In this document: positions 5,820 through 62,406 of the stretch, one piece after another
Layout: each line of letters begins with the position of its first letter
How positions within the stretch are numbered: position 1 is the stretch's first letter
NCBI GenBank assembly: GCA_017991375.1
Contig: JAGOQP010000002.1
Span: 2,259 to 66,258 of the forward strand
Source: Minisyncoccota bacterium
GTDB taxonomy: Bacteria; Patescibacteriota; Minisyncoccia; UBA6257; JAGOQP01
DNA: 64,000 nt
Reading direction: 5' to 3'
Program-made: the position numbers and the translations under genes
The notes under the pieces: model-generated
Seen by the model: the letters and a program-made list of their open reading frames with translations, nothing else
Told to the model about the DNA's origin: nothing
The model's database searches: none

Positions 5820-6224
5820 ATGATGTTAAAAACTCCCATTCGAGACGATTTACTCTACCCAAATGAAACGTATCGGATAATGGGCGTGCTATTTGATGTA
5901 TGGAACCAAATAGGGTGGGGACATAGAGAACGAGTCTATCAGAACGCTTGCGCGGTGGCTTTTAAGAAGGCATTGATTCCATTCAAGAAAGAAGTGCATA
6001 TCCCTGTATTTTATAGAGGAGAAAAAATCTCTCATTCATTGAGCGATTTTCTTTTGTTTGATTGTATTATATTGGAGATAAAGGTTAGATCATTTTTTAG
6101 ATTGGGGGATATAAGACAGTGTTATAGGTACTTAAAGGAAAGTAATATGAAACTTGCAATTATCGCGCATTTTACAAAAGATGGCGTAAAATTTAAGCGA
6201 ATTGTAAATATTCCTAATAACTAG
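5820..6224 (+). CDS. GxxExxY family protein (PD-(D/E)xK-like)
   Basis: Signature WGHRERVYQNA (G-x-x-E-x-x-Y) near the N-terminus; 134 aa; flanked by inverted repeats. Confidence 0.8.
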   Translation: MMLKTPIRDDLLYPNETYRIMGVLFDVWNQIGWGHRERVYQNACAVAFKKALIPFKKEVHIPVFYRGEKISHSLSDFLLFDCIILEIKVRSFFRLGDIRQCYRYLKESNMKLAIIAHFTKDGVKFKRIVNIPNN

Positions 6225-11129: not shown

Positions 11130-11298
11130 TTCAACGTTCAACTTTCCACACCCCGTCCACTCTTCGGCTTGCCCTGTTCTCACTCGTTTAACTTTCCACT
11201 TTCCACTCGTTCGTACCCCCGAGAGGAATATCCTTCGCCTCTCGTTTCGCCTTGCTTTCGTTCGTTTAACTTTCCACTTTTCACTTTCCACTCGTTCG
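11130..11298 (-). repeat. tRNA-Arg(CCU) 3'-flank element: GGAAAGTTAAACGA-type repeats plus a duplicated tRNA 3' end
   Basis: Bottom strand reads tRNA - CGAACGAGTGGAAAGTGAAAAGTGGAAAGTTAAACGAA - CGAAACGAGAGGCGAAGGA - TATTCCTCTCGGGGGTA (copy of the tRNA 3' 17 nt, top-strand 11215-11231) - further GGAAAGTTAAACGA repeats; same architecture as at 26205-26436. Confidence 0.7.
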
Positions 11299-11371
11299 TA
11301 CCCCCGAGAGGAATCGAACCTCTATCTATCCCTTAGGACGGGACTGTTCTAATCCGTTGAACTACGAGGGT
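11299..11371 (-). tRNA. tRNA-Arg (anticodon CCU)
   Basis: Reverse-complement: acceptor ACCCTCG/CGGGGGT, D-arm GTTC-AACGGATTA-GAAC, anticodon stem GTCCC/GGGAT with loop GTCCTAA, T-arm AGAGG-TTCGATT-CCTCT; 73 nt. Confidence 0.75.
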
Positions 11372-13013
11372 TTATAAGCAAAAAACACGTTGAAAACAGC
11401 CCTTGGGTATTGTATGCTAAGTGCGCATAAAAATTCAAATACCATGGGCCTATGGTATACCGGTAGAACGCCTCCATGGCATGGAGGAGAACGGGGTTCA
11501 ATTCCCCGTAGGTCCACCAAAGTTGATTAGTCGCCTCGCTCGGCGCTTCGCGCCTCGCTTCGGCAGGCATTTCCGCAAGGAAATGCCAAGGGTTTTTGAA
11601 ATCAATCGTCAATTTTCCCGCCGCAAGGCGGCGGTTCGAGCCGATGGTTTTGAGAAAATTTTTCATTTCCGAAAAATTTTCAGACAAAATGAGATTTTTG
11701 GCTTGGTTGGCCTCTAAAATCCAATTTCGGGTGAGTTCGAGCCAATGATTTCCTTTTCGCTCAAAATCCGATAATTTTTCCTCAATATCTTTCTTTTCCG
11801 CCATTAGTTTGTTTTTCTTTTCCTGAAATTCCGCCAGTTCAAAACTGCCTTCAAGATAGCCGTCCATTAAGCGGTCTATTTTTGTTTTTATGGCGGAAAG
11901 TTCGGTTTTAAGATTTTGAGCGAAAAGGTCTGATGTTTGGCGGTTTTCGCTTTCCCATTCTTTCACTTTGCAAAGATATTTTTCCCGCCAAACATCGGGC
12001 AAAGAAACTTTTTGACAAATCTCTTTTACTTGCTCGGTCAAAACTTCTTCCCGCAAAAAGCGAGCTTGAGAACAATTTTGCGTTTTGCTTTTGTGGGTGC
12101 AACGATAATAAACAAATTTTAGTCCGCTTTTCTTGATGTGCCGTTCGGCTGTTATGGCATATCCGCACTCGCCACAAACCGCAAAATTGAGAAATTGAAA
12201 GTTTTTCGGTCCTCGCTTTTTGCGGGGCTTGCCGTTTGTGATTAACGCTTCTTGTATTTGGTCAAAAAGTTTCTTTGAAATCATTGGCTTATGCGATCCT
12301 TGATGAATTTCGCCACGATAGCGAAAATGTCCGTAATAGAATGGATTAGTCAAAATTTTCTGAATGGTGGAAAGATGAGGCAGTTTCCCGTCTTTGCCAA
12401 CCAAGCCAAGAGAAAACATTTTGCCTTGAATAGCGGTAAGCGTGTAATTGCCAGTGGCAAAAGCCCGCAAAACTTCTTTCACTTTGTTAAAAGTTTTTCT
12501 ATCGGGTTCTATAGTTCGCAGACGAGGTTCGTTGAAATATCCGAGCGGGGCTTTTGCCGATAGCTCACCGCGTCTTATTTTCTGCCTGATTCCGCGCAAA
12601 ATGTTTTCTCTTAAATTGTCGGTGTAATACTTTGCTTGTCCGAAGGCGACAGACAACATAAATTTTCCCTGCGGTGTCGCTTCAAACCAAAATGTGGGGA
12701 ATTTTAGCGATTCAATCTTTTTTGTGTCCACAAGGTAAATTACTTTTCCGCCGTCTATTGAATTTCTAGCCAATCTATCGGGATTCCACGCTAAAATTCC
12801 CGAAGCGTTGCCTTTTTCAATTTCCGAAAGCATAAAATTAAAAACTTCTCGGCCCGGCTCTTTGGCTGTTTTGCTTTCGTAAAATTCTTTGACGACAAAA
12901 AGATTGTTTTGTTTGGCAAACTCGCGAAGTTCCGTGAGCTGGGCCTCAATAGACAAAACTTGTCTTTCCTCGTCCTCGCTTGATTTGCGACAATAGATAA
13001 AGTATTTTATCAT
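11349..13013 (-). CDS. large serine recombinase (resolvase/invertase N-terminal domain + recombinase domain + zinc ribbon + coiled coil)
   Basis: N-terminus MIKYFIYCRKSSEDEERQVLSIEAQ...AWNPDRLARN (serine-recombinase catalytic domain); CGECGYAITAERH...YYRCTHK zinc ribbon. The ORF has no stop until 11349, so it reads through IR-A, antisense tRNA-Ala and into tRNA-Arg; the true C-terminus is probably upstream (~455 aa to the IR boundary). Confidence 0.85.
   Translation of the reverse strand: MIKYFIYCRKSSEDEERQVLSIEAQLTELREFAKQNNLFVVKEFYESKTAKEPGREVFNFMLSEIEKGNASGILAWNPDRLARNSIDGGKVIYLVDTKKIESLKFPTFWFEATPQGKFMLSVAFGQAKYYTDNLRENILRGIRQKIRRGELSAKAPLGYFNEPRLRTIEPDRKTFNKVKEVLRAFATGNYTLTAIQGKMFSLGLVGKDGKLPHLSTIQKILTNPFYYGHFRYRGEIHQGSHKPMISKKLFDQIQEALITNGKPRKKRGPKNFQFLNFAVCGECGYAITAERHIKKSGLKFVYYRCTHKSKTQNCSQARFLREEVLTEQVKEICQKVSLPDVWREKYLCKVKEWESENRQTSDLFAQNLKTELSAIKTKIDRLMDGYLEGSFELAEFQEKKNKLMAEKKDIEEKLSDFERKGNHWLELTRNWILEANQAKNLILSENFSEMKNFLKTIGSNRRLAAGKLTIDFKNPWHFLAEMPAEARREAPSEATNQLWWTYGELNPVLLHAMEAFYRYTIGPWYLNFYAHLAYNTQGLFSTCFLLINPRSSTD
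11446..11519 (+). tRNA. tRNA-Ala (anticodon GGC), CCA encoded
   Basis: Acceptor GGGCCTA/TAGGTCC with the G3:U70 Ala identity pair; anticodon stem CCTCC/GGAGG with loop ATGGCAT; T-arm CGGGG-TTCAATT-CCCCG; ends ACCA. Confidence 0.8.
11514..11637. repeat. IR-A left copy (124 bp)
   Basis: Reverse complement of 13156-13279 with 2-3 mismatches; contains hairpins GGCATTTCC-gcaa-GGAAATGCC and CCGCCGC-aa-GGCGGCGG; outer end overlaps the tRNA-Ala CCACCA. Confidence 0.9.
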
Positions 13014-26204: not shown

Positions 26205-26356
26205 CGGAGTATCCACGAGCAAGCAAATAATTTTGCTTGCGTCAGGAATCGAACGCCGGAGCTTGTGCGAGTGAGCACACGAGCACGCGAGGCGGTGCCT
26301 AGCCCGAGTTGAGCGACGGCGAAACGAGAGGCGAAGGAGATTTCCTAGCGGGGGTA
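26205..26356 (+). repeat. tRNA 3'-associated conserved structured element ending in a duplicated tRNA-Arg 3' end
   Basis: Hairpin GCAAGCAAATAATTTTGCTTGC; core GAATCGAACGCCGGAGCTTGTGCGAGTGAGCACACGAGCACGCGAGGCGGTGCCTAGCCCGAGTTGAGCGACGGCGAAACGAGAGGCGAAGG; then TTTCCTAGCGGGGGTA, which equals the last 16 nt of the tRNA. The same core lies after tRNA-Tyr (51172-51373); a covarying version lies after tRNA-His (27152-27310). Confidence 0.8.
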
Positions 26357-26436
26357 CGAACGAGTGGAAAGTGAAAAGTGGAAAGTTAAACGAATAAAAG
26401 CAAAGCAAATTGAAGGATGGAAAGTTAAACGATTGG
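26357..26436 (+). repeat. GGAAAGTTAAACGA-type short direct repeats
   Basis: CGAACGAGTGGAAAGTGAAAAGTGGAAAGTTAAACGAA...GGATGGAAAGTTAAACGA; the same block occurs (reverse strand) beside tRNA-Arg(CCU) at 11130-11298. Confidence 0.8.
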
Positions 26437-26663
26437 TCGTTGGTCATTGATTCTTAACCGCAAGACACTCATCTTTAATCGAGAGAGATGGTAGTTAGTT
26501 TTAAGATCAATCCTTGCGTAAGCACTGTTTTCGTATTAGAATACGTTTTGCGTATTTTTATTAATCCCAGTCACTGGTTGTCTGTTGTTAGTCGTTTGTT
26601 GTCTGCCTACGGCAGATCCTGAGCGTAAGTCGAAGGGTAAGTTACTCATATGCCGCGGTAGCT

Positions 26664-26699
26664 CCCTCCGTCGTCCATTTGTGATGGACTATGGAAGGG
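26664..26699 (-). repeat. REP-like hairpin element, copy 3
   Basis: Reverse complement CCCTTCCATAGTCCATCACAAATGGACGACGGAGGG; immediately preceded by a 13-nt tRNA-Phe 5' fragment (GCCGCGGTAGCTC). Confidence 0.7.
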
Positions 26700-26765
26700 C
26701 ACGCAGTGTGCTCCTAGTGTTTGTGCCGTTGTCTGTTGTTAGTCGTTTGTTGTTTGTTGCTATAT

Positions 26766-26872
26766 GCCGCGGTAGCTCAGTGGGTTTAAAGCAAACGATT
26801 TTGCTTTAAACGGGAAATCCAAAAGATATATTGGATTTTCCCTGGAAGAACAGAAAACCGAAGGTCTGCGAT
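26766..26872 (+). repeat. tRNA 5'-associated element: duplicated tRNA-Phe 5' end (18 nt) plus conserved two-hairpin module
   Basis: GCCGCGGTAGCTCAGTGG, then GTTTAAAGCAAACGATTTTGCTTTAAAC (hairpin), GGGAAATCCAAAAGATATATTGGATTTTCCC (hairpin), TGGAAGAACAGAAAACCGAAGGTCTGCGAT; about 90% identical module at 51838-51948 led by the tRNA-Thr 5' end. Confidence 0.8.
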
Positions 26873-26923
26873 ACGAAAGCACAAGACAATAAAGATATAT
26901 AAAAGCAACAATAGAAATAATAT

Positions 26924-26995
26924 GCCGCGGTAGCTCAGTGGTAGAGCAGACGCCTGAAGAGCGTCGTGTCGGGGGTCCGATTCCCTCTCGCGGCA
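26924..26995 (+). tRNA. tRNA-Phe (anticodon GAA)
   Basis: Acceptor GCCGCGG/TCGCGGC, D-arm GCTC-AGTGGTA-GAGC, anticodon stem GACGC/GCGTC with loop CTGAAGA, T-arm GGGGG-TCCGATT-CCCTC. Confidence 0.8.
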
Positions 26996-27077
26996 CTGGA
27001 TTGACACACGACTCGCAATTGATTCTAAAAAATAGTTCTTTTGTGGGTTGTCCGTTGTCGGTCGTTAGCAAGTATAT

Positions 27078-27151
27078 GGTGGCTATAGTTTAACGGTAAA
27101 ACTTCGGTTTGTGGAACCGATGTCAAGGGTTCAACTCCCTTTAGCCACCCA
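27078..27151 (+). tRNA. tRNA-His (anticodon GUG) with G-1
   Basis: Extra 5' G; acceptor GTGGCTA/TAGCCAC; anticodon stem TCGGT/ACCGA with loop TTGTGGA; T-arm AAGGG-TTCAACT-CCCTT; discriminator C. Confidence 0.75.
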
Positions 27152-27310
27152 GAATAGATTTACGTCTATTTTTGTGGCTAAGCGAGCAAACTGCTTTGCT
27201 CGCGTAAGAAGTTGAACGCCGGAATATGTGCAATTATAAATTGCACAATGAGGCGGCGACTAGACTGTGCTATTTAGCACAAGTCGGAGTCAACTCCCTT
27301 TAGCCACCCA
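27152..27310 (+). repeat. tRNA 3'-associated structured element ending in a duplicated tRNA-His 3' end
   Basis: Hairpin GCGAGCAAACTGCTTTGCTCGC; core GAAGTTGAACGCCGGAATATGTGCAATTATAAATTGCACAATGAGGCGGCGACTAGACTGTGC... with compensatory change in the GTGC...GCAC hairpin relative to the Arg/Tyr copies; then TCAACTCCCTTTAGCCACCCA, equal to the tRNA-His 3' 21 nt. Confidence 0.75.
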
Positions 27311-27315
27311 AAATT

Positions 27316-27861
27316 ATGCAAAAAGAAATTGAAGTCAAAATACAGGTCTCCGATTTAAAGCCCATACAAGAAAAATTGGAAAGTTTAGGATGTGTGATTT
27401 CTAACCCAATAGCGCAACACGACACCATTTTTAATCTTAATGGAATTACTATCAATGATCATAAAACTCCGGTATTGCGTATAAGAGAGCAAAATGGAAA
27501 GTATATTTTTACTTTTAAACAAGACGTAACCAATGAGCTTGACTGTATTGAGCATGAGACAGAGATAACAAACAAAGACGAACTCGTTAAGATTATTGAG
27601 CGACTTAATTTTGTAAAAACGGTTGAGGTTAGAAAAACGCGTCGTAAGACACAATATGGGGAGTACGAAATCTGTTTGGACGACGTTGATAATCTCGGGT
27701 TATTTGTAGAGGCCCAGAAGATGTCAGAACAAGACGGAAAAATAGTACAGGATGAGCTAATAGATTTTTTGGTTGAGCTCGGAGTCCCACGAGAAGGGGT
27801 TGTGTCCAGAGGATACGATACGCTTGTGTTTGAGAAGTTGCACCAAAAAGAGAGCTTATAA
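27316..27861 (+). CDS. CYTH-domain protein (class IV adenylyl cyclase/triphosphate tunnel metalloenzyme family)
   Basis: N-terminal EIEVKIQV (ExExK motif); 181 aa. Confidence 0.7.
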   Translation: MQKEIEVKIQVSDLKPIQEKLESLGCVISNPIAQHDTIFNLNGITINDHKTPVLRIREQNGKYIFTFKQDVTNELDCIEHETEITNKDELVKIIERLNFVKTVEVRKTRRKTQYGEYEICLDDVDNLGLFVEAQKMSEQDGKIVQDELIDFLVELGVPREGVVSRGYDTLVFEKLHQKESL

Positions 27862-35585: not shown

Positions 35586-36155
35586 ATGAGACGCGTCTCG
35601 CGAATCGAGTTTTTGAAAAATGTGCATAGTGGTAATTTTTCAAATGCATTTACGGCATTCCTGTTTTCGTTTGGGTCGGTCGATATTCTACGAAAAAATT
35701 TGAGATCTATTGGAAATAATAGTTCGATAGATTGTCATGATGATGAGAGAAGAAAACTGAAAAGAAGATTTGATGTGGTTATGTGCCGTCTTAAAAAAGA
35801 TGGGATGATAAAAGAAGATGGGCATATAACAAAGAGGGGAATTATTTTTTTATCAAGTATTATTGGTCGTGAAAGTAAATATTTACCGACGCGATCATAT
35901 CAACATGGCAAAAGTGACACAATAACATTAGTCACATTTGATATCCCAGAAAAATATAAGAGATATCGCGAATGGTTACGGTTTGTTTTGCGAGATATGG
36001 GATTTTCGATGCTTCAGCGTAGTGTGTGGATAGGTAAAGTAAAAATTCCAAAGGAATTTTTGACGGATCTAAAAAACACTAAAATGATTCCATTCGTAGA
36101 AATAGTTGAAATCTCAAAACTCGGCTCTGTAGAAAGAATTTCCAATGCGGGATAA
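35586..36155 (+). CDS. winged-helix-like N-terminal domain fused to a Cas2-like C-terminal domain (orphan; PaaX-like architecture)
   Basis: C-terminus ITLVTFDIPEKYKRYREWLRFVLRDMGFSMLQRSVWIG aligns with Cas2 N-terminal beta-alpha-beta core (compare [38 protein letters not shown]); N-terminal ...RKLKRRFDVVMCRLKKDGMIKEDGHITKRG looks like a wHTH; no cas1/cas9 or CRISPR array in the window. Confidence 0.6.
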   Translation: MRRVSRIEFLKNVHSGNFSNAFTAFLFSFGSVDILRKNLRSIGNNSSIDCHDDERRKLKRRFDVVMCRLKKDGMIKEDGHITKRGIIFLSSIIGRESKYLPTRSYQHGKSDTITLVTFDIPEKYKRYREWLRFVLRDMGFSMLQRSVWIGKVKIPKEFLTDLKNTKMIPFVEIVEISKLGSVERISNAG

Positions 36156-51171: not shown

Positions 51172-51373
51172 CATAATAAAATTATTTTCCTTCACGCAGT
51201 GAGCGTGAGGGAGTAATTTTATTAAGTTGGTCAAGAAAAAACCAACTGCTTGGTTTTTGAGTGAGAGTCGAACGCCGGAGCTTGTGCGAGTGACCACACG
51301 AGCACGCGAGGCGGTGGCTAGTCTGAGTCGAGTGACGACGAGACAAGAGGCGAGGCCGACTCTCACCCTACCC
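51172..51373 (+). repeat. tRNA 3'-associated conserved element ending in a duplicated tRNA-Tyr 3' end
   Basis: Hairpin CCAAGAAAAAACCAA-ctgc-TTGGTTTTTG; core GAGTCGAACGCCGGAGCTTGTGCGAGTGACCACACGAGCACGCGAGGCGGTGGCTAGTCTGAGTCGAGTGACGACGAGACAAGAGGCGAGGCC; then GACTCTCACCCTACCCA, equal to the last 17 nt of the tRNA. Confidence 0.8.
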
Positions 51374-51521
51374 ACTCGACGCGCCCTGAGTAAAATCGAA
51401 GGGCTTGCTCGTGGCAAGCCACATTCTATGAGTGAATTTCAAACACGCACGATAATCAGTTGTTATGAATTTTGTTGGTTCCTTGTTGTTAGTCGTGGGT
51501 GGTTAGTCGTTAGTTATATAT

Positions 51522-51545
51522 GCCATAGCTCAGCTGGGTTTATGG
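51522..51545 (+). repeat. truncated tRNA 5'-fragment + GTTTA module
   Basis: GCCATAGCTCAGCTGG-GTTTATGG; a decayed copy of the 5'-associated element upstream of tRNA-Thr(UGU). Confidence 0.5.
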
Positions 51546-51588
51546 ATTTTATTGTTAGTTGTAAGTAGTTAGTTGTTAGTCAATGCAT

Positions 51589-51660
51589 GCCACCTTAGCT
51601 CAGCGGTAGAGCAACTGTTTTGTAAACAGTAGGTCCCCGGTCCGAATCCGGGAGGTGGCT
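51589..51660 (+). tRNA. tRNA-Thr (anticodon UGU)
   Basis: Acceptor GCCACCT/AGGTGGC, anticodon stem ACTGT/ACAGT with loop TTTGTAA, T-arm CCCGG-TCCGAAT-CCGGG. Confidence 0.8.
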
Positions 51661-51837
51661 CAACTATCTGGACTTTTTTTATAATTTGAATACAATTATA
51701 ACGTGGTTCCAGATGCTTTATCGCTTGCTGTCTGTCTACGGCAGGTTCTGACTGGTGGTGAGTATAATCGAACCAGTAAGTGAAACGCATTGAAGGGTAG
51801 GTGATCGGTAGTTAGTTGTAAGTTGTTAGTTACATAT

Positions 51838-51948
51838 GCCAATGTAGCTCAGCTGGGTTTAAAGCAAACAATTTTGCTTTAAACGGGAAATCCAAAAAGA
51901 TATATTGGACTTTCCCCGGAAGAGCAAGCAACCGAAGGTATTGCGATG
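51838..51948 (+). repeat. tRNA 5'-associated element: duplicated tRNA-Thr(GGU) 5' end (19 nt) plus conserved two-hairpin module
   Basis: GCCAATGTAGCTCAGCTGG, then GTTTAAAGCAAACAATTTTGCTTTAAACGGGAAATCCAAAAAGATATATTGGACTTTCCCCGGAAGAGCAAGCAACCGAAGGTATTGCGATG; the intact tRNA begins 47 nt later. Confidence 0.8.
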
Positions 51949-51995
51949 TCATGCACATTTATATACAGTACAATCAAGTCTGGAAATAAGCACTT

Positions 51996-52262
51996 GCCAA
52001 TGTAGCTCAGCTGGTAGAGCAACTCCATGGTAGAATAAACACTGCCCACTGTCTGAGAAATTAAACAGTGAATCCCGAATGACGGTCAAAAGCCTGTGCA
52101 GGCCAAGACCGTTCCGCTCAAAGCGGACGAACGACTGACAAGGGTGACTAAATTCACTTTTGGTGAACAAGTCAAAGATACAGTCTAATCCTCAAATAAG
52201 CATTGTATAAATTGGGGTAGAAATGAAGGAGTAGGTCGCCGGTTCAATTCCGGCCATTGGCT
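51996..52262 (+). tRNA. tRNA-Thr (anticodon GGU) interrupted by a ~194-nt group I-like intron in the anticodon loop
   Basis: 5' exon GCCAATG-TA-GCTC-AGCTGGTA-GAGC-A-ACTCC-ATGGT (ends at 52031, U36); 3' exon AA-GGAGT-AGGTC-GCCGG-TTCAATT-CCGGC-CATTGGC-T (from 52226); the exons splice to a 73-nt tRNA. Confidence 0.6.
52032..52225 (+). ncRNA. group I-like intron in tRNA-Thr(GGU)
   Basis: Preceded by U and ends in G (omega-G); contains GGGTGACTAAAT (R-like, GACTA) and CAAAGATACAGTCTAATCC (S-like, compare AAGATATAGTCC), the P7-forming elements of group I introns. Splice junctions inferred, not computed. Confidence 0.5.
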
Positions 52263-52275
52263 CTCTGTAGATTTT

Positions 52276-55553: not shown

Positions 55554-55706
55554 TGTTTTTTACCAACCACCAACCACTAACAACTAATCACTATTCTTAT
55601 TGTAGCAGAAAAACCATACCATTTGTCAAAATGAGTAAAATCAAACAATAAATGCACAATGACACACAGACACGGGAGAATCGCAAAGAGAGCATGAAAA
55701 TTAAAC

Positions 55707-58110: not shown

Positions 58111-58239
58111 AAAGCACTCAACTACAATATATTTGAGTATTTCAAAACGGTGCATATATGTACCGTGTACGTTACAATCATGTGTATTTTGAATGGCATA
58201 TTATCTCGTGGACACGTTAGGCAGTTTTACGGGATAGTG

Positions 58240-58268
58240 TTGACTTCCATCTATTTTTATGCTAGAAT
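58240..58268 (+). promoter_or_regulatory. sigma70-type promoter TTGACT-N17-TAGAAT
   Basis: ttgacttccatctatttttatgctagaat, 16 nt upstream of ATG 58285. Confidence 0.5.
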
Positions 58269-58284
58269 ATACACACGGTTTGTT

Positions 58285-61200
58285 ATGCGTAAAAAGCGCA
58301 TAAAATCTATGAAAAACATTATTATCAAAGCATCAATTGCGGTAGCGCTCGTTGTAGCGCTCGGTTTTGTGTTTGCGGGCGTTACTCACGCTCAAACACA
58401 GGCGCAATTTGATTCAAACTTTTTTGAGGTCGGAGATCACAAAGACACGGGGACGATAAATTGGCAAAAGGCCCTTTATAACATCAAACCAGGCGATCAG
58501 GTGCAATTTCTTTTCTCTCTGCATAACATCTCAAATGTAAAAGCACTGGATGCGCGCACCACATTGTCTGTTCAAAATTCGGGAAACGTTATTTCAATTA
58601 CGGGGCGTATTTGGGCTCAAAACGCTCCCGCAATTACCGAAACAGTAACTATTCACGCCGCTCCTGGGTATACCATTCGTCTTGATATTCAAAACGGTGA
58701 TTACGGTGGTGTGGGGGATGTAAATCCGGGACAAATCAAATACCACACAACTAATTTGCTCCCGATCACCGGAGGGCCTGTTACTCCTACGCTTACATGT
58801 ACAGCAAATGCAAGCCCTTCATCGGGGAATAGTCCGCTTTTAACCGTGCTTTCGGTTAATGCTCAAGGTGGAAGCGGGGGATACATGTATAAGTATGCAT
58901 ATGGCGATGGCGGATACACTGATTTTATTTCCAACGCATCGATTCCCTACACGTATGCTTCTAACGTATCAAAAACGTTTACAGCAACTATCACGGTAAA
59001 AGACAGTCAAAACAATCAAACATCATGTACCACACAGGTAGCGGTAACTGTAACACAAACAGGTGGCGCTCCCATTGTTCAAACAAACGCGGCAACTATT
59101 GTCGCGCAAGTAAGCGCCGTTCTTAACGGATCAGTCAATCCTAATGGCGCTAATACGATGTATTGGTTTGAGTACGGCACATCAAATAATCTTGGAAATA
59201 ACACGCCTTCGCAAAACATCGGATCGGGAACATCGGCACAATCGGTCTCTGCTCAACTAACAGGACTTTCGGGGAATACTACTTATTACTTTCGTGTTAC
59301 GGCGCAAAATACATACGGCGTATCACGTGGCCAGATTCTTACCTTCACGACAACCGGCGATGGTGGGTTAGTAAACTCATCACTTTCGTTGCAAGCATTA
59401 GAGCGTACCAATTGTAACGCGTCGGGCGGCACTCCTATCTCGGGTGTGCGTATGCCAATTCGCAATCCACGTAATTTACTAGTGTATAGTGGAAACACCA
59501 ACTCAGGTACGTCATTTCCAGTAACGGTTGCGGGAAATTATACTGCCGAAACTCCATCGGGATATGGCAATCGCCAATTCTGTCGCTTTGAAGGATCCCC
59601 AGCATATTTTGATCAAAACAATCAGACAAAAACCATTACAGCCATCTTTGCGGTTCAACAGAGCGGAGGGGCCCCCATCGTTCAAACCAATAGCGCGACT
59701 AACATCTCGCAAACGGGTGCAACGCTCAATGGTTCAGTCAATCCTAACGGCGCCAACACCAACTACTGGTTTGAGTACGGCACCTCAATGTCATTGGGGA
59801 ATAACACTCCGATGCAAAGCGCTGGATCAGGAACATCAGCACAATCAGTATTTGCTTCGCTGACCGGACTTTCTGCTAACACCACATATTACTTCCGTAC
59901 CGTTGCGCAAAACCAATATGGTACTACTCAGGGTTCTATCTTGAGTTTTACCACGGGGACAAATACTCAGTGCCAAATCCCATTCGCGTCAACCGCGGCG
60001 GCAACTAATATTAGTGCGTCTTTGGCAACGCTTAATGGAACAATTAATGGAAATGGATGCCAAACAACCTACTGGTTTGAGTACGGCACCTCAATGTCAT
60101 TGGGGAATAACACTCCAACACAGAATGGTGGAACTGGAAGCGCGCAAGCATACGCATCTGTGTCAAACCTTGCGGCCAATACCACATACTATTTTCGTGT
60201 GATGGCGCAAAATCAACAGGGATCAGCGCAAGGATCAATTTTGAGTTTTACGACGGGGAATGGAGGTGGTGGATCTGCCCCCATCGTTCAAACCAATAGC
60301 GCGACTAACATCTCGCAAACGGGTGCAACGCTCAATGGTTCAGTCAATCCTAACGGCGCCAACACCAACTACTGGTTTGAGTACGGCGCCTCAATGTCAT
60401 TGGGGAATAACACTCCGATGCAAAGCGCTGGATCAGGAACATCAGCACAATCAGTATTTGCTTCGCTGACCGGACTTTCTGCTAACACCACATATTACTT
60501 CCGTACCGTTGCGCAAAACCAATATGGTACTACTCAGGGTTCTATCTTGAGTTTTACCACGGGGACAAATTCAGGAAGTTCTCCGTATGTCCAAACCAAT
60601 AGCGCGACCAACATTTCGCAAACAAGCGCAACGCTCAATGGGCAGGTTAATCCAAACAATTCAAACACAACGTACTGGTTTGAATATGGAACGACCAGTG
60701 GTCTTGGAAATACCACTCAAACACAAAGCGCCGGATCGGGAAACAACACTACTAATATCTCGCAATACGTTTCTGGGCTTACGAGCAACACCACGTATTA
60801 CTTCCGCGCGGTTGCGCAAAATCAGTATGGTACTTCATACGGACAAATTCTTACGTTTACCACCAATACGGGTGGGGGAGGATCTGCTCCGATAGTGCAA
60901 ACCAACAGCGCGACCAACATCTCGCAATCATACGCGACTCTAAACGGATCGGTGAATCCAAACAATGCCAACACCAACTACTGGTTTGAGTACGGCACTA
61001 ACGGAAACTTGGGGAACTCAACAGTGATGCAAAATGCCGGATCGGGAAATTACAGCATGAACATCTCCCAGTATCTTTCGGGGCTAATGTCTAACACGAC
61101 CTACTACTTCCGCGCGGTGGCGCAAAATCAATACGGTACTTCGTATGGACAAATTCTCACGTTTGTAACAAACACAGGAGGTGGAAGCTGTACCATTTCC

Positions 61201-62406
61201 CCGAATGTATGGACTAATAGCGCAAACAGCATTTCTTCAAATGGGCTTACTTTCAATGGCCAAGTAACAGCCAATGGAGACAACGCGTATGCGTGGTTTG
61301 AGTATGGAACAGGAAGTGGCTATTTGAGCTACACCACCAACTCAACCAACGTAAGCAACTGGAGTGGTTCTCAGAACGTTTCACAGTCGGTGTACAATCT
61401 CTCATCGGGAGCAACGTACTATTATCGTATGGTAGCGCGCAATAACTGTGGAACGTCATATGGGCAAACATTATCAGCAACAACGGGAGGATATTACTAC
61501 GATGGGCAAGCGCCTTATGTCGTAACACTTCCGGCTACGTACGTGTATCGCAATTCAGCGCTTCTTAACGGTCAAATCAATCCCAATGGCAGTATGACTA
61601 CAGGATGGTTTGAGTATGGAACAACTATGAACTTGGGATCACGAACGCCGACGCAAGCAATGGGATCAGGATCATACCTTTCAAACATTGCGGCGGCACT
61701 TTCTGGGTTAGTACCAAACACAACCTACTACTTCCGCGCGGCGGCGCAGAACACGTATGGGACAGCATACGGCCAAGTATTAAGCTTCACCACACAAGGA
61801 CAACAGATTATTGTTACTCCTCCAAGCGAGCCAACGATTGTTATTCAACGATCGGGCGTGGTTACTACCGGATCGGGAACGTCGTGTGTGATCTTGGTAC
61901 CGGCATTGGATGTGTCTGAATTACTCCCAGGTCAAACCTTTACGTATACCATTACGTATCGCAATGGATGTGCCTATAATTTGGGGAACGCGTTCTTGAA
62001 AGTTATCTTGCCGACTGAAACGGACTTTGTCTCTACTAACTATCCATTCTTCAATCGCGACGCGAACGGAATTTCATACAACCTTGGCGTTATCTCACAG
62101 AATTTCCAATCGGCGATTAGTATTAAGGGTATAGTGAAAGAAACGGTAAAACGGGGAGATACGTTAATCTTTAGCGCGGTGCTCAACTTTAACGACGCGC
62201 AGGGACGCTTTCAGTCAATTAGCGCCTATCTAACTGCGGTAGTTGGAGGAGCGCAAGTGCTTGGAGCTTCAATCTTTGGCGCATTCGCGGGACTCTTTAG
62301 TAACTGGCTCTTTGATCTGTTCTTAGTACTTCTTATCATCTTTGCTATTTGGTGGATCTTCTTTAGGAATAAAGAGTCATCGGTAAAAGTTGACGTGTTA
62401 AAATAA
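58285..62406 (+). CDS. giant cell-surface protein with about nine ~101-aa FN3/Ig-like repeats, N-terminal signal anchor and C-terminal TM anchor
   Basis: Repeats APIVQTNSATNISQTGATLNGSVNPNGANTNYWFEYGTSMSLGNNTPMQSAGSGTSAQSVFASLTGLSANTTYYFRTVAQNQYGTTQGSILSFTT; many N-x-S/T sequons; two repeat units (59671-59972 and 60277-60578) are about 99.7% identical at DNA level; start set at MRKKRIKS. Confidence 0.8.
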   Translation: MRKKRIKSMKNIIIKASIAVALVVALGFVFAGVTHAQTQAQFDSNFFEVGDHKDTGTINWQKALYNIKPGDQVQFLFSLHNISNVKALDARTTLSVQNSGNVISITGRIWAQNAPAITETVTIHAAPGYTIRLDIQNGDYGGVGDVNPGQIKYHTTNLLPITGGPVTPTLTCTANASPSSGNSPLLTVLSVNAQGGSGGYMYKYAYGDGGYTDFISNASIPYTYASNVSKTFTATITVKDSQNNQTSCTTQVAVTVTQTGGAPIVQTNAATIVAQVSAVLNGSVNPNGANTMYWFEYGTSNNLGNNTPSQNIGSGTSAQSVSAQLTGLSGNTTYYFRVTAQNTYGVSRGQILTFTTTGDGGLVNSSLSLQALERTNCNASGGTPISGVRMPIRNPRNLLVYSGNTNSGTSFPVTVAGNYTAETPSGYGNRQFCRFEGSPAYFDQNNQTKTITAIFAVQQSGGAPIVQTNSATNISQTGATLNGSVNPNGANTNYWFEYGTSMSLGNNTPMQSAGSGTSAQSVFASLTGLSANTTYYFRTVAQNQYGTTQGSILSFTTGTNTQCQIPFASTAAATNISASLATLNGTINGNGCQTTYWFEYGTSMSLGNNTPTQNGGTGSAQAYASVSNLAANTTYYFRVMAQNQQGSAQGSILSFTTGNGGGGSAPIVQTNSATNISQTGATLNGSVNPNGANTNYWFEYGASMSLGNNTPMQSAGSGTSAQSVFASLTGLSANTTYYFRTVAQNQYGTTQGSILSFTTGTNSGSSPYVQTNSATNISQTSATLNGQVNPNNSNTTYWFEYGTTSGLGNTTQTQSAGSGNNTTNISQYVSGLTSNTTYYFRAVAQNQYGTSYGQILTFTTNTGGGGSAPIVQTNSATNISQSYATLNGSVNPNNANTNYWFEYGTNGNLGNSTVMQNAGSGNYSMNISQYLSGLMSNTTYYFRAVAQNQYGTSYGQILTFVTNTGGGSCTISPNVWTNSANSISSNGLTFNGQVTANGDNAYAWFEYGTGSGYLSYTTNSTNVSNWSGSQNVSQSVYNLSSGATYYYRMVARNNCGTSYGQTLSATTGGYYYDGQAPYVVTLPATYVYRNSALLNGQINPNGSMTTGWFEYGTTMNLGSRTPTQAMGSGSYLSNIAAALSGLVPNTTYYFRAAAQNTYGTAYGQVLSFTTQGQQIIVTPPSEPTIVIQRSGVVTTGSGTSCVILVPALDVSELLPGQTFTYTITYRNGCAYNLGNAFLKVILPTETDFVSTNYPFFNRDANGISYNLGVISQNFQSAISIKGIVKETVKRGDTLIFSAVLNFNDAQGRFQSISAYLTAVVGGAQVLGASIFGAFAGLFSNWLFDLFLVLLIIFAIWWIFFRNKESSVKVDVLK

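Follow-up and report, generated by a model that had tools for sequence, protein, structure and literature searches.

Genes for transfer RNA (tRNA) and transfer-messenger RNA (tmRNA) are classic landing sites of mobile DNA, and the occupants known so far are large islands that carry an integrase and lie on the gene's 3′ side. Movement between tRNA genes has also been proposed for the non-canonical tRNA introns of archaea. Here we analyse a duplicated tRNA start in a Minisyncoccota bacterium (Patescibacteriota; assembly GCA_017991375.1), at 26766–26872 of a stretch of 64,000 nucleotides (nt) from contig JAGOQP010000002.1 (its positions 2,259 to 66,258, forward strand), which as a whole is called the window. 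From its sequence we read the flagged segment as a disabled partial copy of the start of the adjacent tRNA-Phe gene, carrying in its D-loop a non-coding insert of ~63 nt that consists of two hairpins and (C/T)GGA. The two-hairpin module on the 5′ side of tRNA genes is named class A, its 3′-side counterpart module B, and the first hairpin of module B P0. With about even confidence we take class A to be a small non-autonomous mobile element, one of a wider Patescibacteria set that sits in the elbow loops of tRNA and tmRNA genes. A search of the full-text literature found no description of class A or module B; apparently neither has been described before, and the integrase-borne islands at tRNA and tmRNA genes appear to be the closest known systems.

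Class A at tRNA-Phe and tRNA-Thr(GGU)

All features are on the plus strand of the window unless noted. At tRNA-Phe a direct repeat, ATATGCCGCGGTAGCTCAGTGG, spans tRNA positions −4 to +18 and is found at 26762–26783 and again at 26920–26941 (22/22 identical). Its first copy is a stub, ATAT followed by tRNA-Phe positions 1–18, which holds the acceptor 5′ strand, the D-stem 5′ strand and the D-loop as far as GG. Hairpin 1 (HP1, 26784–26811) abuts the stub and is a perfect 12-bp hairpin with a 4-nt loop (GTTTAAAGCAAA-CGAT-TTTGCTTTAAAC). It is followed by hairpin 2 (HP2, 26812–26842), with 11 bp and one bulged base (GGGAAATCCAA-AAGATATA-TTGGA(T)TTTCCC), and by a 3′ arm (26843–26872) of the form TGGA-AGAACAGA-AAACCGAAGGT-CTGCGAT; the class A 3′ arm contains ACCGAAGGT and GCGAT. 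An A-rich spacer (26873–26919) leads to the second repeat copy, which runs into the intact tRNA-Phe(GAA) gene at 26924–26996 (repeat and gene together, 26920–26996). The 136 nt between the stub and the second copy are non-coding, and the sole open reading frame (ORF) across the locus is an antisense one (26760–27071) that overlaps the tRNA itself.

The same layout recurs 25 kb away at tRNA-Thr(GGU). There the repeat TGCCAATGTAGCTCAGCTGG spans tRNA positions −1 to +19 and occurs at 51837–51856 and 51995–52014 (20/20 identical). The stub, T plus tRNA-Thr(GGU) positions 1–19, is followed by the second class A module (51857–51948), with HP1 at 51857–51884, HP2 at 51885–51916 and the 3′ arm CGGA-AGAGCAA-GCAACCGAAGGT-ATTGCGAT. 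Stub and second repeat copy are separated by 138 nt of non-coding DNA, and the second copy enters the intact gene at 51996–52263 (together 51995–52263), which carries a 194-nt intron. This gene and ten called directly make up the 11 tRNA genes of the window. Both stubs end at the D-loop GG, as the preliminary description of the locus had reported from the sequence, and the module that it had put at about 90% identity is identical at 81/92 positions (88%) between 26784–26872 and 51857–51948. HP1 and HP2 taken together are identical at 57/60 positions (95%), and the three differences are all unpaired, one each in the loops of HP1 and HP2 and one in the bulge of HP2. Behind the modules identity drops to 27/54, about 50%, across the spacer (~47 nt at Phe). 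The HP1 pattern occurs twice in the window against zero occurrences expected by chance, and with filters off a class A covariance model detects the two full copies and no other.

After HP2 and (C/T)GGA, each copy appears from its sequence to resume as the D-stem 3′ strand of its tRNA for about 8 nt and then to stop. In the Phe unit AGAACAGA matches tRNA-Phe positions 21–28 (AGAGCAGA) at 7/8 positions, and in the Thr unit AGAGCAA is identical to tRNA-Thr positions 21–27. Because the D-stem 3′ strand seems to resume in this way, the unit is in our reading an incomplete tRNA copy whose D-loop holds the insert. Past AGAACAGA the Phe 3′ arm has a mini-hairpin, ACC-GAA-GGT, and then 5 nt able to pair with acceptor positions 3–7.

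The stubs also keep the surroundings of a tRNA gene start. A G/T heptad leader (GTTGTTAGTCGTTTG...TATAT) precedes both stubs and also the uninterrupted Arg-TCT, His and Thr-UGU genes, but is missing before the intact Phe and Thr(GGU) genes. Since the stub, unlike the intact gene, keeps the usual tRNA leader, it looks like the old gene start. The leader of the Phe stub lies at 26728–26756 and is 97% identical to 26577–26605.

Class A, its truncated copy included, is found only at the three window tRNAs with the D-arm TAGCTCAG, namely Phe, Thr-GGU and Thr-UGU. The Phe unit carries a slightly degraded complement of the Thr-type D-arm (CUGGAAGAAC against CCGGAAGAGC), which suggests that this segment came with the element and not from the target. 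In the minimum-free-energy fold of the Thr unit, the D-stem (GCUC/GAGC) and CUGG/CCGG complete a three-way junction around HP1 and HP2. Stub and insert would be transcribed as a leader and, on this folding model, would form such a junction. Duplex energies between stub and tail are no better than those of shuffled controls in either window copy. A tRNA-like closure, with the acceptor 5′ strand paired to CUGCG or UAUUG, is present in the minimum-free-energy fold of the Phe unit, but shuffled sequences pair equally well and we rejected it.

Decayed and stacked copies accompany the full ones. The truncated copy (51522–51542; GCCATAGCTCAGCTGG+GTTTA), noted in the preliminary description, joins a Thr(GGU)-type stub, shortened by a 3-nt deletion, to the opening 5 nt of HP1; heptad repeats follow and then tRNA-Thr(UGU) (51589–51661), whose 5′ end it does not resemble. 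An older Phe stub (26650–26727) holds the 13-nt tRNA fragment (26652–26664) that had also been noted, and which proved real; it continues into two unrelated hairpins (CCTCCGTCGTCCAT..ATGGAC..GGAAGG and GGGCACGCAGTGTGCTCC) and is probably an earlier, decayed event at the same gene.

No terminal inverted repeats were found at the class A ends, where the only hairpins are the internal HP1 and HP2, and in the window HP1 resembles the P0 hairpins of module B. Class A is flanked by repeats of 20, 22 or 30 nt and module B by repeats of 17 to >40 nt, so there is no fixed-length target duplication.

In a survey with Rfam 15 covariance models only tRNAs reach threshold, and class A and module B match no family. 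A group I intron was considered for class A on account of a 15.5-bit match to RF00028, and was rejected. The high-confidence part of this match is the real intron of tRNA-Thr(GGU) (52032–52225), and its alignment over the class A module is a loose hairpin match with no recognisable catalytic core. The intron itself is group-I-like and sits at position 36/37, behind anticodon position 36. In its 3′ part it matches the group I P7 region (AAGAUACAGUCUAAUC), but as a whole it scores far under the Rfam threshold. Part of the Thr class A spacer (51969–51992) is 75% similar to intron positions 52179–52202.

Several further repeats accompany these loci. A third motif lies upstream of the class A units (26606–26649 and 51729–51800), a CUGCC-UAC-GGCAG hairpin followed by (C/U)CUGA...GAAGGGUA(A/G)G, and a similar ...GGAGGGTAAGG segment stands behind a tRNA-Arg stub upstream of tRNA-Arg(GCG) on one metagenome contig (L149). 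G/T-rich heptads (GTTAGTY-like) are found upstream of tRNAs at 26577–26605, 26728–26756, 51488–51514, 51552–51580 and 55562–55593, and A/G-rich ones (GTGRAAA...GTTAAACGA) downstream of tRNAs at 26363–26390, 11191–11207 and 11265–11292. Repeats with a 7-nt period also occur in several further parts of the window.

Module B and related inserts in metagenomes

Module B, a conserved element with a three-way junction, lies downstream of tRNA-Arg(TCT), tRNA-His and tRNA-Tyr; behind tRNA-Arg(CCT) it is truncated. Its order is P0, the reverse complement of the T-stem 3′ strand and T-loop, a conserved core (GAACGCCGGA...GAGGCGGUG(G/C)CUAG...CGAAG) and, last, the tRNA stretch between T-loop and 3′ end in an exact copy. 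After tRNA-Arg(TCT) (26206–26358), P0 is followed by AGGAATC, the reverse complement of the T-arm, by the core (GAACGCCGGA...GAGGCGGTGCCTAG) and by the tRNA-end copy (26342–26358). The module after tRNA-His (27151–27314) has a copy of the acceptor 5′ strand (GTGGCTAA, 27174–27181), P0, a divergent core whose changes are compensatory, and a 25-nt tRNA 3′-end copy (27290–27314). After tRNA-Tyr (51173–51375) the T-arm reverse complement occupies 51261–51273, the core begins at 51270 and the 3′-end copy lies at 51352–51375. In the truncated module after tRNA-Arg(CCT) (11213–11297, minus strand) the core is reduced to its final ~25 nt, with the tRNA 3′ end and trailer copied behind it.

A degenerate core pattern was searched against metagenomes, and at least 120 contigs matched (loci L090–L209). 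Among the matches listed, 101 of 129 module B instances have a same-strand tRNA upstream, of almost any amino-acid type, which usually ends 20–100 nt before the core; most instances have a 15–21 nt copy of the tRNA 3′ end ~35–40 nt past the core. Three further instances (L096, L191 and L203) follow a tmRNA gene, and there the arms match the tmRNA T-arm and 3′ end. A few instances have no tRNA within 1.5 kb.

In an alignment of 110 instances, 92.9% of cells are paired, against 70.8% in shuffles and 30–44% with slid partners. Double changes number 595 (175 in shuffles), and compensatory changes are seen in 18 of the 23 pairs. By a tally of the pair table, G.U occupies ~85 cells and A.C ~33, and therefore it is the tRNA-sense strand that folds. 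A subset of instances has a copy of the acceptor 5′ strand 33–34 nt before the T-arm complement, just 5′ of P0; this copy scores at least 8/9 in 19/85 cognate and 7/838 non-cognate cases. To judge from its sequence, module B in this subset is a miniature tRNA-like fold with a large domain in the T-loop.

The duplicated segment of module B usually starts at T-loop positions 56/57, with a second mode at position 60, and usually ends a few nt from the tRNA end, sometimes 15–148 nt into the trailer. An IS91-like nick after GTTC was considered for the 56/57 starts and rejected in view of the second mode at 60 and of finding no HUH-family gene.

Module B occurs in tandem at two loci (L176 and L159). 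An automated search for filled and empty sites returned mostly repeat artefacts and one genuine pair, at tRNA-Lys(CTT) on two closely related contigs (L127:1–420 against L092:700–930, minus strand). In the filled site tRNA-Lys is followed by a ~190-nt module B, the repeat and then AATC... with tRNA-Arg; in the empty site tRNA-Lys is followed directly by AATC... and tRNA-Arg, and the flanking tRNA-Arg is essentially identical in both. Tandem repeats of ~77 nt lie near the empty site. A rearranged module B core (GCCGGAGCGCGRCGGCGCGAGGYGGGGTCG...UUUUYCAGCAGRAAAA) was also seen, downstream of a tRNA-Arg paralogue in L123 and at L138:697–880, the latter behind a tRNA-Phe stub that ends in the anticodon loop.

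Exact class A patterns gave 0 matches in species-representative genomes, JGI metagenomes and viral contigs, and because of this the spread of the class A sequence itself could not be shown. Analogues of its layout were surveyed on 827 kb of metagenome contigs, the L-numbered, module B-related loci. Three tRNA-Ser genes on Patescibacteria contigs (L111, L159 and L206) have upstream stubs that end at the D-loop GG and continue into two hairpins, past which comes the gene's own D-loop end and D-stem 3′ strand. The L111 insert is GC-rich and 64 nt long, with a 30-nt repeat that extends 12 nt upstream of the gene; L159, also GC-rich, has the same layout; and in L206 the HP1 loop is CUGC, as typical of P0. 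All three genes have a module B downstream. Stubs that end in the anticodon loop were seen at three loci (L114, L138 and L148). The class A model also matches a sequence-related two-hairpin insert at L128/L189 (28.8 bits), downstream of tRNA-Cys, where the T-loop of a partial tRNA-Cys copy holds an HP1 with a CUGC loop, an HP2 (GGGAAAUUU...AAAUUUCCC) and CGG. Since this is again a loop insert in a partial tRNA copy, and the loop is the T-loop, the two-hairpin insert is not tied to the 5′ side.

Proposed mobility and its rivals

As mobile elements, these inserts would settle in the D-loop after G18G19, in the T-loop around 56/57 and sometimes in the anticodon loop. Integration would duplicate the end of the gene, with an intact gene always surviving beside the interrupted partial copy; at a D-loop site the stub would retain the old leader and the intact gene would end up behind the element. 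The loop may first be broken, and recombination or copying may then duplicate the tRNA end, perhaps helped by pairing of the CCGGAAGAGC segment of the element with the D-arm. We infer that class A itself moves, and presumably by this route of loop break and end duplication. We favour mobility because of the foreign insert shared by two tRNAs, the restriction to tRNAs with the same D-arm, the decayed and stacked copies, the module B tandems with the filled/empty pair, and the sporadic occupancy of tRNA genes. The preliminary description had suggested either repeated recombination at the tRNA gene boundaries or a mobile, promoter-bearing module. Its direction holds, given the same insert at two tRNAs, the decayed and stacked copies, the analogues and the filled/empty pair; the location shifts from the gene boundary to the D-loop GG, the exact point of the break within the tRNA. 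The exact sequence was indeed found only at the two sites, but the loci are not the simple tandem-duplication remnants that it had set against mobility, since a foreign insert, 95% identical, is common to two different tRNAs.

Other observations count against a mobile element. There are only two full class A copies here and none elsewhere at the sequence level among the scanned genomes, metagenomes and viral contigs, and the near-identity of copies within the genome could stem from gene conversion. The conservation of module B and its RNA-type covariation suit selfish DNA no better than a functional RNA, and the pairing of stub with 3′ arm in the two window copies does not exceed shuffled controls. 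The filled/empty pair concerns module B and not class A, and in it gain is indistinguishable from loss, because deletion between the repeats leaves the same empty site. No transposase, integrase or reverse transcriptase was found near the modules in Pfam scans of 48 window ORFs of at least 100 aa (nearly all those of the window that are not nested in a longer ORF), and clustering of the ORFs around the 120 module-bearing loci gave only housekeeping families, with no recurrent gene of these three kinds. In the whole window the scans revealed no recombinase, transposase or reverse transcriptase save a large serine recombinase ORF (11349–13013, minus strand).

The main rival, which we consider rather unlikely, is a functional tRNA-mimic RNA, encoded in cis, specific to its tRNA and co-transcribed with it, with a role in processing, stability, charging-related control or as an enzyme decoy; the tRNA-end copies would then be kept by selection and would not be leftovers of insertion. 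Module B has the order of a tRNA (acceptor 5′ copy, P0, T-stem 5′ strand, T-loop domain, T-stem 3′ strand, acceptor 3′ strand), and its acceptor copy stands at a fixed distance of 33–34 nt with the cognate preference given above (19/85 against 7/838). Its core is nearly invariant over many contigs and covaries strongly, the excess of G.U over A.C points to folding of the tRNA-sense strand, and in most cases the duplication stops only a few nt from the 3′ end of the tRNA. The three-way junction closed by the D-arm in the Thr class A fold also fits a mimic. Only about half of the 11 window tRNAs are occupied, however, and some copies are truncated or decayed, while the tandem repeats and the empty site in a close relative speak against a required role at each locus. 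The class A sequence is not conserved outside its source genome in our scans, and the closing helix of the Phe copy is degraded. Mimicry and mobility might also be combined. Tentatively, the modules may be retargetable tRNA-mimicking RNA elements, in which a conserved domain sits in the D- or T-loop of a miniature tRNA or tmRNA copy and spreads through an RNA or single-stranded intermediate that would recognise its target by mimicking or pairing with tRNA arms.

The guide RNA, island scar and promoter readings are less favoured, and none of them agrees with all of the tested features. It is improbable that the repeats are attL/attR scars of tRNA-integrated elements later deleted almost wholly, even though tRNA and tmRNA genes are the established targets of islands, the repeats equal the tRNA end, the gene is restored intact, several events pile up at a single gene, and the serine recombinase ORF adjoins tRNA-Arg(CCT) and tRNA-Ala. 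The inserts are of one small size at separate loci (class A 136/138 nt, module B about 135 nt), they carry a covarying RNA-like fold that unconnected deletion events would not yield, the D-loop break of class A on the 5′ side is no usual integrase sublocation, and no integrase remnants were found between the repeats or recurrently near modules. We think it quite improbable that the unit is a natural single guide RNA whose 18–19 nt of tRNA identity steer an effector encoded elsewhere to tRNA genes, with a 5′ guide on the plus strand (as in the Cas9 single guide RNA or IscB omega RNA) or a 3′ guide on the minus strand (as in TnpB/Cas12). The identical segment does have a guide-like length and abuts a perfect hairpin without a linker, and after the match both targets continue TAGAGCA and the module GTTTAAAG. 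Yet the Pfam scans of the window found no Cas9, IscB, TnpB or Cas12-like gene, nothing of that kind recurs beside the modules in the 827 kb, and the guide-scaffold families of Rfam gave no match up to E = 10 over the class A loci. The match, moreover, always reaches the first base of the tRNA gene, and past the insert tRNA sequence appears to resume, for which a guide would have no use. On the 3′ side the T-loop position at which the match begins varies, and a fixed target-adjacent motif is thus missing. Nor is it probable that class A serves chiefly to supply the downstream tRNA with a sigma-70-type promoter. The site in question (TTTAAA-N16/17-TATATT) is called in both copies, and the intact genes have lost the usual heptad leader; still, it matches the consensus at only 9/12 positions, such sites are no commoner than in shuffled sequence, its presence in both copies carries no extra weight because these are 95% identical, and the GC-rich analogues L111 and L159 lack it. 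Beyond this 9/12 match the promoter-bearing part of the preliminary description finds no support. Least probable of all, and very improbable, are plain tandem-duplication remnants of each tRNA gene without a foreign element: the stubs copy the neighbouring gene exactly and the 7–8 nt past the insert match it too, but the 60-nt insert, 95% identical at two tRNAs, is unrelated to either.

The presence of module B on at least 120 contigs and its absence from Rfam suggest that such elements are common in Patescibacteria genomes and have been overlooked. Mobile elements of this kind would imply an integration route that recognises tRNA arms, and functional ones would form a new family of tRNA-specific mimic RNAs; retargetable mimics would home to essential RNA genes, and spare them, in a manner new for non-coding elements. 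Each case bears on the annotation of tRNA stubs, on tRNA transcription and processing, and on the tolerance of small genomes for selfish elements in essential genes.

Genomic context and known systems

The window is a chromosomal stretch that encodes gyrB, nusG, gatB, miaA, dnaE, thrS, leuS, rpsB, tsf and trmD. Relatives of its GyrB are 50–60% identical, the best being from metagenome-assembled genomes of Magasanikbacteria, Falkowbacteria and Berkelbacteria (55–60%). The window also has a CYTH gene (27316–27861), whose nearest CYTH relatives are only ~55% identical and have no synteny with the window. The relatives' loci compared for orthology, mostly GyrB loci, hold only 4 tRNAs in all. In the serine recombinase ORF the Resolvase, Recombinase and Zn_ribbon_recom domains lie within residues 5–331, and a long C-terminal extension runs antisense through tRNA-Ala(GGC) (11446–11519) and overlaps the start of tRNA-Arg(CCT). 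Two further proteins adjoin no module, a small one with a Cas2-like/PaaX central domain (35586–36155, plus strand) and a PD-(D/E)XK (PDDEXK_3) nuclease-family protein (5820–6224, plus strand). Tandem repeats of 306 nt (59683–61164) lie within a 1418-aa ORF rich in fibronectin type III domains (58150–62406).

Among known systems, group I introns in bacterial tRNA genes likewise place a structured RNA in a tRNA loop, but class A has no recognisable catalytic core and leaves the functional gene uninterrupted. MITEs (miniature transposable elements with inverted repeats) and repetitive extragenic palindromic (REP)-like repeats, along with other small non-autonomous repeats of bacteria, are similarly short and rich in hairpins, do not code for protein, and occur as several near-identical copies per genome. 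Unlike MITEs, the present inserts have no terminal inverted repeats and no short fixed target duplication; they lie strictly within tRNA loops, and their flanking repeats are long (17–30+ nt) with one end fixed in the loop. Guide RNAs such as the Cas9 single guide RNA and the IscB omega RNA resemble class A in that a target-identical segment of 18–19 nt abuts a perfect hairpin with more hairpins after it, whereas here no effector gene or scaffold homology was found, the segment is set by the tRNA start and the D-loop, and the tRNA sequence resumes.

The non-canonical introns and the split or permuted tRNA genes of archaea are also small structured inserts at D-loop, anticodon-loop and T-loop positions. 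Here, by contrast, the host is bacterial, no bulge-helix-bulge is evident, and the interrupted copy is truncated. No splicing is needed, because that copy is a pseudo-copy adjoining the intact gene. The islands and prophages that integrate in tRNA and tmRNA genes by site-specific recombination share with the present elements their loop targets, direct repeats of the tRNA end, the restoration of an intact gene and the piling up of repeated events at one gene. They differ in that the present inserts are 60–190 nt long, non-coding and without an integrase, and carry conserved hairpins or a three-way junction, with reverse-complement tRNA strands on the 3′ side. Class A further duplicates the 5′ part of the tRNA and breaks it at the D-loop GG, whereas islands use the anticodon loop, the T-loop and the 3′ end; module B, on the other hand, does fit the T-loop sublocation of the islands.

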